Positions 59,989 to 64,000 are shown, numbered from the stretch's first letter. The stretch is 64,000 nucleotides of DNA from Candidatus Curtissbacteria bacterium (GCA_030647775.1 JAUSJC010000010.1:6208-70207), one strand, 5' to 3'. Translations and numbers: made by a program. Notes: generated by a model from the letters alone, not told the origin.

Positions 59989-60276
59989 GTGATCAGTATC
60001 CACAAACTTGTCTGGGACTGGTGGAATATAGCCCATATTGCCAGACACAGTGTTACTGCGGAAGAAGTAGAACAAGTTTGTCATATTGATCCAGTTGTAC
60101 AAAAAGGCAAAAAAGGCAGGCTGCTTGTTTTTGGCCCAACGGAAACCGGCAGAATTCTAGCAGTGATTCTTGACCAGGAAGAAGAAAAAGGAGTGTACTA
60201 TCCAATAACAGCGTATAAAGCGAGTAAAAAACTAGAAAAAGTATATTTAAATCAAAAAGGAGGTGATGACAAATGA
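59989..60276 (+). CDS. BrnT-like (DUF497) toxin, second copy, diverged.
   Basis: 'LVWDWWNIAHIARHSVTAEEVEQV...KGRLLVFGPTETGRILAVIL'. Paired with a downstream RHH antitoxin. Confidence 0.5.
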   Translation: MISIHKLVWDWWNIAHIARHSVTAEEVEQVCHIDPVVQKGKKGRLLVFGPTETGRILAVILDQEEEKGVYYPITAYKASKKLEKVYLNQKGGDDK

Positions 60277-60539
60277 CCCAAAAGAAAAAAACAATACCTA
60301 ATTTTAAAAGCCGTGAAGAAGAAGCAAAATTCTTTGACACCCATGACATGGCCGATTATCAACACGAATTTAAAACTGTGAAGGTAAAATTTGCCAAAAA
60401 TCTCTCGGAAGGTATTACAATTCGATTCGATAAACCTACCTTAGAAAAACTTCGGGAACTCGCCCATGAGAAAGGCTTAGGGCCAACAACGCTAGCTAGG
60501 ATGTGGTTACTGGAGAAACTCCAAGCGCATAGAGCTTAA
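60273..60539 (+). CDS. BrnA-like antitoxin, second copy.
   Basis: 'ITIRFDKPTLEKLRELAHEKGLGPTTLARMWLLEKL'. ATGA overlap with the toxin gene. Confidence 0.55.
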   Translation: MTQKKKTIPNFKSREEEAKFFDTHDMADYQHEFKTVKVKFAKNLSEGITIRFDKPTLEKLRELAHEKGLGPTTLARMWLLEKLQAHRA

Positions 60540-60663
60540 AATCCAACCACAATAGAAAAAAAGGTTTCCTGCTCGCAGCTGCTCCCAGGATCTTCGGCAA
60601 CGTTTCGCCTCGACCTCGACTTTTCGCGCAATTCAAATTGAAAGTGCTAGAATTAGCCCGCTT

Positions 60664-61365
60664 ATGAATCTCATCCGCGACGATATTTTAAGCTACCGCG
60701 AAATGTGTGACGCGGAAAACGTCCAAACTTTGCAAAGGGGAATGAACTTTAGGCTAAACCCAAAATATTCCGTTATTTTAATGTCTCAAAGAACAAACGC
60801 GCCTTATAAAGACAAAATTTATTCTGACGGAATAACTATCGAATACGAAGGTCACGATGTTTCAAAAAGGAGCTACGATCATTTTCCAAAACTAGAAGAC
60901 CAACCGGAAAAACTTCCGTCCGGCAAATTAACCCAAAATGGCCTATTCATCAAATCAGTCATAGACTTTAAAAACAATGACAAGGGCCCTGAGATTATAA
61001 AAGTTTACGAAAAAATAATGCCAGGCGTTTGGTCTTTAAAAGGTTTTTTCGACTTAATTGATTACAAAATTTTGCACGACGGGGAAAGAAATGTATACAG
61101 ATTCATTCTAAGATTAAAAAATAATGTCGATTTTGAGACTAACTATCAAATCATAGAACTGCAACATAACAGAATTATTCCTTCGGAAGTTAAAAAGGAA
61201 GTTTGGAAAAGAGACGGGGGAAAGTGTGTAATTTGTAAGGAAACAAAAAACCTTCACTTTGACCACGAACTACCATTTTCCAAAGGCGGAACAAGTCTAA
61301 CGGCAAAAAACGTCCGGCTGCTTTGCATGAAACACAACCTCCAAAAATCCGCAAAAATTGAATAA
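60664..61365 (+). CDS. HNH endonuclease with an unassigned ~170-aa N-terminal domain (architecture resembling modification-dependent type IV restriction or defence nucleases).
   Basis: C-terminal 'EVWKRDGGKCVICKETKNLHFDHELPFSKGGTSLTAKNVRLLCMKHNLQKS' (HNH). AT-rich island. Confidence 0.7.
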   Translation: MNLIRDDILSYREMCDAENVQTLQRGMNFRLNPKYSVILMSQRTNAPYKDKIYSDGITIEYEGHDVSKRSYDHFPKLEDQPEKLPSGKLTQNGLFIKSVIDFKNNDKGPEIIKVYEKIMPGVWSLKGFFDLIDYKILHDGERNVYRFILRLKNNVDFETNYQIIELQHNRIIPSEVKKEVWKRDGGKCVICKETKNLHFDHELPFSKGGTSLTAKNVRLLCMKHNLQKSAKIE

Positions 61366-61492
61366 ATAATTGACGTCCGAGTTTTCTTTGGGTATATTAA
61401 ATTTATTGCCCTACCTTTTGGTCTGGGCTTTTTTTTGAAATTTGTTATGAATAAACGAATAAAAAAGAAAATAAACTGTAAATGAAATACTC

Positions 61493-62869
61493 ATGATAAA
61501 ACTTGTTGACGATCTCGAATCCTTCAAGGATACATTTCCAAAAAATTTCTGGCTCAAAATAAGCAATCAATATCTTAAAATTCCCGAAAAACGAAATTAT
61601 AAAAAGATTATTGAGGAGGTGTATAAATCATTGAACAATCAAAATTATTATCCATCAAAGCCGTGTTATTACATTGATAAAAATAAGGGAAACGGGGTAC
61701 TCAGAAGAATACCTGTCTTGGAACTTAAAGACTATCTAGTTTATTTTTATTGTTTGAAAAAATTAGAAAGCAAACTAGCCATGAACCGCGTACCAAATAC
61801 ATATGGTGGTTGGTCGCTGGGCGGTTTAATTAGACAATCCGAAAAAGAAGAACTTAAACCTCTAACTGGAAATTTAACTTTAGATTGGTCCAATAATTCA
61901 TCTATTCCTACATTTAGTTACAACGAACGTGCATGGGTTCAGTATTATGGCGATTTCCAAAAAAATTTATATGCCCATCTAAATGAGATGCTAAGAAAAA
62001 ATGGCACCAAGTTTTTGATGGTAGTTAAGTTTGATATAGAAAAATTTTATGACTCTATCAGGTTGAATTTACTAGAAAAAAATATAAGGGCTATTTGTGA
62101 CACAAACCACACACCTATAGTTGATTTACTAATACATTTCTTAAAATACTGGAATAGAGACATCAACGGATATGATTCACAACAGACAGGCTTACCGCAA
62201 GATGCACTCGCTGACTGCTCAAGAATCCTTGCTAATTTCTACTTGCAAACGTATGACCAACAAATTTACGATTATACAAATAAAAATAAATCGCACTTCT
62301 TTAGGTATTCAGATGACCAAATTATCATAACTCAAAACTACCAGGAAGCGGAAAATTCACTACATAAAGCATCTATCGAACTCTCTAAGGTGGGTCTAAA
62401 TATTAATAAGGCAAAAGTATCGTACTTTACTCTGCAAGAATTAATTGATCACTTCTCTTTTAAAGAATTTAAGGCCCTTTCTGAGAATAAAAATAACTCT
62501 AAAACCTTACAAGAGGTAGCTGAAAGCTATCTAAATGCTGGGGAACTCACAAAAAAGGAACCGTTGCTTTACAAAATCTTGGATCAAGATTTATCAATTT
62601 TAAGACATGATTTACGAACTCGTTTACTCTCCGATTCTTATGAAAAAAAATTCATTACTATTTATTCGAACTCACATACTTTTTTTAGAATTTACAAGAA
62701 TCTAAAGGGTGAAGAAAAAGTAAGTTTTATTAAATACTTAGATGGTCTTTGTCAAGAAAATGAATTTACAGGTTTTCATTTTGAATTGTTAAACTTCTAT
62801 AGAGAAATCAAAAAGAATACACAGAAAGTCGAGAAAAGAATTAAGGGGTTGCAAGAAAAATGGAGTTAA
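61493..62869 (+). CDS. Reverse transcriptase (458 aa) with a ~150-aa helical C-terminal extension; candidate defence-associated or retron-like RT.
   Basis: RT motifs 1-2 'VLRRIPVLELKDYLVYFYCLKKL', A 'LMVVKFDIEKFYDSI', B' 'GLPQDALADCSRILANFYL', C 'FFRYSDDQII', D 'SKVGLNINKAK'. Confidence 0.8.
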   Translation: MIKLVDDLESFKDTFPKNFWLKISNQYLKIPEKRNYKKIIEEVYKSLNNQNYYPSKPCYYIDKNKGNGVLRRIPVLELKDYLVYFYCLKKLESKLAMNRVPNTYGGWSLGGLIRQSEKEELKPLTGNLTLDWSNNSSIPTFSYNERAWVQYYGDFQKNLYAHLNEMLRKNGTKFLMVVKFDIEKFYDSIRLNLLEKNIRAICDTNHTPIVDLLIHFLKYWNRDINGYDSQQTGLPQDALADCSRILANFYLQTYDQQIYDYTNKNKSHFFRYSDDQIIITQNYQEAENSLHKASIELSKVGLNINKAKVSYFTLQELIDHFSFKEFKALSENKNNSKTLQEVAESYLNAGELTKKEPLLYKILDQDLSILRHDLRTRLLSDSYEKKFITIYSNSHTFFRIYKNLKGEEKVSFIKYLDGLCQENEFTGFHFELLNFYREIKKNTQKVEKRIKGLQEKWS

Positions 62870-63039
62870 CTTGTTAACCAAATATACAAAACACCGCAAA
62901 CAATTCCAGCCGAGCAAAGAAAATGAATTCAGAATTTTGTATTATGGTTTGGCTGCAGTAGTAGATTCCGGAATTACTGTCGGGTTAAACACTTGCACTT
63001 CGGCAATATCTGTCACCTTAATAACATTGGCGGACCGGA

Positions 63040-64000
63040 TTACTGCAATAAACGCAGAAGTTTAGCCGGCAGAAATTGGCTGCCATAAATTATTACAAAA
63101 AGTAAAACTATCCAGCAAATTACCGTTATCAGAAGCGGCTTATCCGAAAGCAATACCCTTTCCGGCGATTCGCCCTCTTTTTTCTCATGAATCACATATA
63201 GATATCTCATTACCCCGTAAATTACAAAAGGCACCGTAGCCATCAGCCACTTGGAAGCTAAAAAGGTTCTTGGCAAATCGCCAAATAAAACCAAAACTTG
63301 CGGCCCCGCGGAGGGTGTTGGTTGGAAAAAGGTAAACATAGTGTAGGAAAACCAGGCGGTTGTCGCAAACATCACAGTCAGTGAATCCAAAAGCGACTCC
63401 GGATAATGCATCAAAATCGATCTGGTCCCCAGTGTTTTTCCTGACGCCAAAAGCAGGGTCCGTTCCGACCTTCTTTTACCAACCGCCAAAAATAAGGCCA
63501 GGGAAGCTACCGTCAGAATGAACCAGATGGTGACATGAGCGTCGATGAGAACCGCTCCCGCAAAAACCCTAAGTAAAAATCCGGACGCAATCGCCATCAC
63601 ATCCAGAAGGATTACCGATCTTAAAAATAGGGAATAGAATATTTGCAAAGTTGCGTAGGCAACCATTGCGACCGTAAAAAACACCGAAATTTTGCTGGCA
63701 ATTAAAACGGCAGCTCCTAAAAGTACAAAAGCGGCAAAAATCGCCACAGCGGGCTTGATTTTCCCGGCCGCGATCGGCCTTTTGCTTTTAAAGGGATGGG
63801 CTCTGTCTTTTTCAATATCGATGACGTCGTTAATTAAGTAGATCGCTGAAGTGACCACGCAAAAAATGCCAAAACCAAAAACAACAAGCCAAAATTTACC
63901 CGGGTTAAAAAATTCCCCTTCAAAAACCAGAGGGGCAAAAAGCGCTATATTTTTAAGCCATTGTCTTGGCCTTGCGGAGATAAAAAGCCATAGAGGGACG
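63040..64000 (-). CDS. UbiA-family prenyltransferase (decaprenyl-phosphate phosphoribosyltransferase-like); N-terminal part runs off the window (continues beyond 64000).
   Basis: 'YLINDVIDIEKDRAHPFKSKRPIAAG' (NDxxDxxxD). Manual upstream translation continues 'RPRQWLKNIALFAPLVFEG...' with no stop before the window end. Confidence 0.7.
   Translation of the reverse strand, partial: VPLWLFISARPRQWLKNIALFAPLVFEGEFFNPGKFWLVVFGFGIFCVVTSAIYLINDVIDIEKDRAHPFKSKRPIAAGKIKPAVAIFAAFVLLGAAVLIASKISVFFTVAMVAYATLQIFYSLFLRSVILLDVMAIASGFLLRVFAGAVLIDAHVTIWFILTVASLALFLAVGKRRSERTLLLASGKTLGTRSILMHYPESLLDSLTVMFATTAWFSYTMFTFFQPTPSAGPQVLVLFGDLPRTFLASKWLMATVPFVIYGVMRYLYVIHEKKEGESPERVLLSDKPLLITVICWIVLLFVIIYGSQFLPAKLLRLLQ

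Follow-up and report, generated by a model that had tools for sequence, protein, structure and literature searches.

We analyze a 64,000-nucleotide (nt) stretch of DNA from a Candidatus Curtissbacteria bacterium (GCA_030647775.1 JAUSJC010000010.1:6208-70207; hereafter "the window," in whose coordinates all positions are given unless another locus is named), in which a gene for an HNH endonuclease (60664-61365, + strand) is followed by a gene for a reverse transcriptase (RT; 61493-62869, + strand). The RT is a member of the UG/Abi group UG13b, and the 233-residue HNH protein, in which an SRA domain precedes the nuclease, is predicted to be a type IV, modification-dependent restriction enzyme. 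A preliminary description of the window had delimited both open reading frames (ORFs), at coordinates that we confirm, and had proposed that they make up one RT-based defense module, possibly with a template non-coding RNA (ncRNA) in one of the gaps flanking the RT gene. Our analysis speaks against the joint module and against the template. We consider it probable that the region is a small defense island in a Patescibacteria-type genome, composed of independent neighboring modules and holding no joint HNH-RT system. Judging from genome comparisons, the adjacency of the two genes is best described as a one-off juxtaposition and not as a new two-gene system.

The association of the two genes was examined from both sides: in 80 loci encoding UG13b RTs, each from a different species-representative genome of GTDB, and in 84 loci of the HNH family besides the window. 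A tblastn search with the HNH protein matched none of the 80 UG13b loci (outside L169, a public contig identical to positions 60275-64000 of the window), and in none of the 84 other HNH loci does a UG13b RT lie beside the HNH gene. An RT of any kind adjoins the HNH gene in only two of these 84, and both RTs are of other lineages. In L003 (4892-8282), an Abi-P2 RT (E 8e-178) is located 84 nt downstream, beyond a MazG-like gene and a gene for an unassigned protein of 369 residues; in L097 (307-3423), a retron type XI RT-protease (E 9e-167) ends exactly at the start of the HNH gene, which has an MvaI/BcnI endonuclease on its other side. PADLOC treats both lineages as self-sufficient single-gene systems. 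The five nearest RT homologues (54-64% identity; P0121, P0123, P0124, P0127 and P0128) stand in unrelated contexts, with neighbors that are not homologous to one another, and no HNH neighbor was seen at any of them, a truncated opposite-strand gene upstream of P0121 being left uncovered. Likewise, no RT adjoins the two nearest HNH homologues (90% identity; P0001 and P0002). The pair is known only from the window genome and the identical contig. The preliminary description had itself named, beforehand, a lack of co-occurrence elsewhere as refuting a single module, and such a lack is what both samples (0/80 and 0/84) gave.

The two genes are separated by 127 nt (61366-61492), a gap that had been noted before but counted as 128. 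Within it, 3' of the HNH stop codon, stands a terminator-like hairpin on the + strand (GCCCUACC-UUUU-GGUCUGGGC, followed by U8; 61408-61436). The hairpin appears in both the minimum-free-energy and the centroid folds and may serve as a terminator; a consensus terminator scan did not call it, the stem being interrupted. On its other side, the RT gene is separated by a gap of 170 nt (62870-63039), to which we assign no feature, from a convergent UbiA-family gene (63040-63858).

Neither of these gaps yielded support for a template ncRNA. A scan against Rfam with E-values up to 1 matched no ncRNA in either one. Folding of the 3' gap is no more stable than that of shuffled sequence (z -0.12 on the + strand and +1.42 on the - strand), and the z of -1.97 obtained for the 5' gap is accounted for by the terminator-like hairpin. 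The perfect palindrome attccggaat, to which attention had been drawn as part of a longer stem, is present in the 3' gap (62965-62974), but it is no more than chance would give, perfect 10-nt palindromes numbering 68 across the window (1.06 per kb). Neither msr/msd-type inverted repeats (a1/a2) nor direct repeats of the template-repeat/variable-repeat (TR/VR) type were found within 8 kb, and an all-against-all blastn comparison of 300-nt UG13b flanks gave nothing common to the window. Several UG13b genes lie no more than 13 nt from both of their neighbors (L015, L016, L021, L025, L047 and L082), too close for a conserved flanking RNA to fit. Three of the closest RT relatives share a TGTATAAT box and a ribosome-binding-like GGGTGG, neither of which occurs in the window; the position of the box, about 35 nt 5' of the start codon, points to a short leader. 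From the Rfam scan, the folding, the flank comparison and the alignment of upstream sequences, we discarded the template ncRNA for both gaps. An RT that has no ncRNA agrees with the published generalization (PMC13174585) that Class 1 enzymes synthesize DNA without a template.

Two further observations concern the flanks of other UG13b genes. In five flavobacterial loci (L032, L034, L053, L058 and L068), an identical stretch of 18-23 nt follows immediately upon the RT stop codon, inside the first 18-27 nt. The window lacks this stretch, which might represent either a terminator or a short conserved element. At two loci of close relatives of the window RT (L172, 3278-4874; L007, 7407-8706), the RT gene is followed by a convergent small PIN-like gene overlapping a gene for a protein of 265-369 residues. 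The PIN-like gene matches DUF4411 in L172 and, faintly, a PIN domain in L007, and the two pairs are not homologous by BLAST; they may be further toxin-antitoxin or defense pairs.

The RT, of 458 residues, is placed in UG13b by the PADLOC profile RT_UG13b, its best match (E 4.2e-117, 390 bits), which aligns residues 8-454 of the protein to positions 3-428 of the 430 in the profile. The next PADLOC profile is UG21 (3.9e-33); UG13a stands at 1.4e-23 and AbiA at about 1e-15, and the runners-up are mostly Class 1 groups (UG21, UG19, UG9, UG23, UG22 and AbiA). The protein also matches Pfam RVT_1 (E 2e-13). Its catalytic motifs are intact, with the Asp of motif A and the YxDD of motif C, here YSDD (residues 272-275, nt 62306-62317), and D181, D274 and D275 are invariant across 29 homologues. 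The RT core extends over residues 50-313 approximately. The 145 residues that follow (314-458, nt 62432-62866) are all-helical in the predicted structure, where helix covers residues 314-457, and the model can be aligned over 304-331 residues with AbiA, DRT4, Abi-P2 and AbiK versus about 250-280 with RT-only structures. The YSDD motif and the helical extension had both been recognized in the preliminary description, and the predicted structure and alignments bear out its suggestion that the C-terminus resembles alpha-Rep. We file the protein as having the Class 1 architecture, i.e., an RT core with a predicted alpha-Rep-like C-terminal domain. Among the matches listed, eight proteins are 54-64% identical to it and the others about 40% or less; by sequence identity, the RT would belong to a small subclade within UG13b.

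The division of UG13 into UG13a and UG13b comes from Mestre et al. (2022, NAR; PMC9226505), who predict a defensive role for UG13b from the inspection of individual loci, as a prediction only. UG13b does not appear among the groups that the text of the paper names as Class 2, Class 3 or unclassified. Class 1 enzymes are described as carrying out untemplated, protein-primed DNA synthesis in three papers (PMC9508834, PMC12783706, PMC13174585), the last of which sets Class 1 enzymes, which make DNA without a template, against Class 2 enzymes, which use an ncRNA. AbiK, Abi-P2 and DRT4 are oligomeric, tyrosine-primed makers of untemplated single-stranded DNA (ssDNA), and the ssDNA of DRT4 turns toxic when shielded by a DNA-binding protein of the phage (PMC9508834, PMC12783706). 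By analogy with these enzymes, the window RT probably makes untemplated, protein-primed DNA. The RT also falls far short of the cut-offs for Drt2 (54 bits against 390) and Drt3a (50 bits against 200).

The C-terminus of the HNH protein (about residues 170-233, nt 61171-61362) is a beta-beta-alpha-Me HNH nuclease in which the catalytic and zinc-binding residues are present. Residues 188-232 match HNH_5 and HNH with E-values of 2e-4 and 2e-3, both under the Pfam cut-offs, and the residues of the pattern CxxC...DH...N...CxxHN (C188, C191, D200, H201, N216, C221, H224 and N225) do not vary among 34 homologues. The HNH nuclease of the preliminary description is upheld. The N-terminal domain (about residues 1-155, nt 60664-61128) has the SRA (PUA-like) fold, which a fold search identified and sequence searches did not; the same search also matched, at lower Z, MspJI, AspBHI, AbaSI and SauUSI. 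With residues 1-165 as the query, phmmer gathered 730 representative relatives across the library. Five of nine diverged relatives that we examined match Pfam SAD_SRA over most of the model (E 6e-6 to 1.4e-4), and the majority of the nine have an HNH domain besides. The earlier guess of a modification-dependent restriction architecture was right at the level of the fold.

In the characterized SRA-HNH enzymes TagI, ScoA3IV and TbiR51I, a dimer flips 5-methylcytosine (5mC) or 5-hydroxymethylcytosine (5hmC) into an SRA pocket formed by two Tyr and an Asp, and the DNA is nicked or cut nearby (PMC6212794). Y48, D50 and Y61 of the window protein are invariant and lie in the region of the domain that corresponds to the base pocket of TagI, a correspondence of regions and not a residue-level alignment. 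In its modeled fold, the protein is built like a modification-dependent restriction enzyme, presumably one specific for modified cytosine. The SRA-like domain occurs in other fusions as well: the set P0248, P0315 and P0342 includes a HIT-SRA-HNH protein of 350 residues, a PemK/MazF-toxin-SRA-HNH protein of 397 residues, and a D12 N6-adenine methyltransferase fused to an SRA-like domain (429 residues).

The SRA-HNH family is large and, for its breadth, conserved to an unusual degree. The window protein has matches in more than 7900 clusters at 90% identity, the best 120 of them (P0001-P0120) being 73-90% identical over the full length, and the few clusters that carry a source name belong to Patescibacteria. 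At the nucleotide level, the similarity of L168 to the window starts and stops at the ends of the HNH ORF, which indicates that the HNH gene moves on its own. These data suggest either that a cassette the size of the ORF often moves horizontally or that constraint is very strong. The commonest neighbor of the HNH gene, present in 20 of the 55 loci with at least 1.5 kb of upstream sequence, is a DUF2075/Schlafen-group-3 helicase of about 618 residues, whose stop codon overlaps the HNH start; a gene for a MazG-like pyrophosphatase of about 116 residues precedes the helicase in 16 loci. A type II restriction-modification (R-M) pair, consisting of an N4/N6 methyltransferase and an MvaI/BcnI endonuclease, stands beside the HNH gene in nine loci. 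The MazG-like/DUF2075 helicase/SRA-HNH trio, seen for instance in L004 (3802-6699), L140 (987-2843), L003 (4536-6699) and others among L088-L167, may be a type IV restriction module of Patescibacteria, made up of three genes and as yet undescribed. The copy in the window has neither the MazG-like nor the helicase partner.

Immediately upstream of the HNH gene is a toxin-antitoxin pair, as the preliminary description had supposed. An ORF of 95 residues for a BrnT-like toxin (59989-60276, + strand; Pfam BrnT_toxin, E 1.5e-4, 22 bits, under the cut-off of 34.5) overlaps by 4 nt the start of a gene for a BrnA/CopG-type antitoxin of 88 residues (60273-60539, + strand; Pfam CopG_antitoxin, E 6.8e-14, over the cut-off; NCBIfam BrnA, weak). 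Genes farther upstream encode ordinary envelope or unknown proteins, among them an M23 peptidase and proteins with PEGA/SH3 and bPH domains. The description of the region as an AT-rich island is borne out by a GC content of 0.365 in the HNH gene, 0.276 in the HNH-RT gap and 0.315 in the RT gene, versus 0.446 over the window as a whole and 0.449 in the UbiA-family gene downstream. The gap also contains a sigma-70-like promoter match (TTGACG-17-TATATT; 61370-61398, + strand), which we note as tentative, such matches not being enriched in the region (8, versus 9.9 in shuffled sequences). A search for direct or inverted repeats bounding the island found none. A search of phage genomes returned no RT homologue and matched the HNH protein by its nuclease domain only, and the island therefore shows no sign of phage origin.

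Under the reading that we prefer, the island would hold three modules that work side by side. The BrnT/BrnA pair would be the first. In the second, the SRA domain would flip a modified cytosine (5mC/5hmC-like) out of the helix and bind it, the HNH domain would nick or cut near the modified base as in TagI, and the enzyme would thereby restrict phage or plasmid DNA bearing that modification. The third would be the UG13b RT, a single-gene system that would oligomerize and, by analogy with AbiK, Abi-P2 and DRT4, produce ssDNA by protein-primed, template-independent synthesis; a phage trigger would lead to the accumulation of ssDNA and so to abortive infection. The RT would neither need nor use the HNH protein, nor a dedicated flanking ncRNA. 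The host would thus gain layered, independent protection: modified invaders would be restricted directly, abortive infection would serve as a back-up, and the toxin-antitoxin pair would form a further layer. For the chemistry and the defensive role of the RT, this account draws on analogy with its better-characterized relatives.

Several points weigh against this reading, or against parts of it. The two genes lie on the same strand, 127 nt apart, with a hairpin that the terminator scan did not call, and co-transcription by read-through from HNH to RT is possible. The HNH family adjoins RTs of three lineages in three of 85 loci, and RTs and restriction enzymes may also be joined in a loose functional synergy. 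As for the RT, its placement in Class 1 was deduced by exclusion and from the predicted structure; for both the defensive role of UG13b and its untemplated synthesis, the extrapolation is from other groups of Class 1. That no dedicated ncRNA flanks the gene is what sequence and fold scans suggest, in giving it no support. As for the HNH protein, the window sequence itself gives no match to Pfam SAD_SRA, and the SRA assignment is at the level of the fold. Searches of all PDB sequences with the protein (phmmer) and with the family profile, at E-values up to 10, returned HNH-domain matches only, with no TagI, ScoMcrA or other SRA chain; given this lack of sequence-level matches, the family appears to be a distinct subfamily that is kin to the characterized SRA-HNH enzymes by fold.

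How much room do these points leave for other explanations? One is the joint system, in which the product of the RT (complementary DNA or ssDNA) activates or guides the SRA-HNH protein as an effector, as in retron- and DRT-effector pairs. Possible read-through and the recurrence of RTs next to this HNH family would accord with it, but we regard it as very unlikely. The pair is confined to one genome and an identical contig, each gene is missing from the sample collected around the other, and the nearest homologues on both sides are unlinked. In addition, the unit in which the HNH gene is transferred has the size of its ORF, its modification reader would explain the choice of target without an RT, the RTs that adjoin it in L003 and L097 are annotated as self-sufficient, and the HNH and RT genes differ in GC content. 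Another explanation is that the region is a mobile or diversity-generating retroelement (a group II intron, a retron or a diversity-generating retroelement proper), with the HNH protein as its endonuclease or as a homing endonuclease. This we hold to be exceedingly improbable, as it is already contradicted by the data. With TIGR04416, the group II intron RT/maturase model, the RT reaches 72 bits where the cut-off is 300, and with the retron St85 RT profile 40 bits where it is 235; the RT matches UG13b over its full length. The sole Rfam match, of 27 bits versus a gathering score of 140, lies inside the RT ORF. No inverted-repeat pair brackets either gap as expected of a retron, no TR/VR repeats lie within 8 kb of the RT, and the N-terminal domain of the HNH protein is an SRA modified-base reader and not the DNA-binding domain of a homing endonuclease. 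The preliminary description, which had offered a retron-like or a UG/DRT-type system and had doubted a group II intron, was correct in the second suggestion and in the doubt, but not in the first.

A further explanation starts from the restriction genes that surround UG13b RTs. An R-M component lies within 3.5 kb of the RT in 16 of 83 UG13b loci, which also counts against full independence of the modules in the window. In four loci, the RT is embedded in the order hsdM-hsdS-RT-hsdR, with junctions that range from overlapping to about 20 nt (L016, 2277-10335; L021, 2744-10303; L022; L030, 2212-10427). Elsewhere it directly follows hsdR (L014 and L085) or a type IIG enzyme (L025, 782-5301), or has hsdS on one side and an EVE-McrB type IV gene on the other (L047, 4283-10831); in L082 (6001-9171), the RT is followed by a DUF2075 helicase at 0 nt. 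UG13b RTs could thus be wired to restriction enzymes as guards, sensing the failure or inhibition of a co-resident enzyme and then bringing about abortive infection by DNA synthesis, an idea to which we give little credence. The anticodon nuclease PrrC, which is held by EcoprrI, offers a comparison. The partner would be a type I enzyme in most of the embedded loci, a type IIG or EVE-McrB enzyme in others, and the type IV SRA-HNH enzyme, which the RT gene follows, in the window; this assignment of partners seems just as doubtful. About 80% of UG13b loci, including those of all five nearest relatives of the window RT, have no R-M neighbor, and the partners are of unrelated types (I, IIG and IV), which fits clustering in islands better than a specific contact between proteins. 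The junction in the window, 127 nt long with a hairpin and U8, is not operon-like. Moreover, independent defense genes inside type I R-M operons are already documented, as in the case of TgvAB of V. cholerae, which acts on its own (PMC11411939), and we therefore take clustering in defense islands as the default reading.

The finding amounts to one more instance of two catalogued kinds of defense gene, and it removes an unsupported new system. It places a UG13b RT, of a group predicted to be antiviral, in a genome of the candidate phyla radiation (Patescibacteria), whose immune systems are poorly studied. It also indicates, through the modeled SRA fold, that the members of an abundant family labeled only "HNH endonuclease" or "hypothetical" are probably type IV restriction enzymes. 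Two leads emerge: the UG13b RTs embedded in restriction operons, and the recurrent trio of MazG-like gene, DUF2075 helicase and SRA-HNH enzyme. Should the guard model be true after all, the window would provide the first case in which an RT has a type IV enzyme as its partner.

Among known systems, the window RT is closest to the UG13b group itself. With 458 residues against a 430-position model, it shares the motifs, the YSDD, the helical C-terminus and the single-gene organization of the group, and like other members it is found among defense genes. It differs in its Patescibacteria-type host and in its neighbor, which is a type IV SRA-HNH gene whereas others adjoin type I R-M genes. AbiK, Abi-P2, AbiA and DRT4 are more distant, at only 12-14% identity in structural alignments, and the likeness to them is drawn from sequence and predicted structure. 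The HNH protein differs from TagI in size (233 residues versus a 285-residue chain) and in having no detectable sequence similarity to it; unlike TagI, ScoA3IV/Sco5333 and TbiR51I, it belongs to a very large and highly conserved family whose genes often follow those of a MazG-like protein and a DUF2075 helicase. The TgvAB genes within a V. cholerae type I R-M operon are paralleled by those UG13b RTs that sit tightly inside hsdM-hsdS-RT-hsdR operons. The window RT, in contrast, adjoins a solitary type IV enzyme with a terminator-like hairpin at the junction, and for these reasons we regard its position as adjacency within a defense island and not as embedding.

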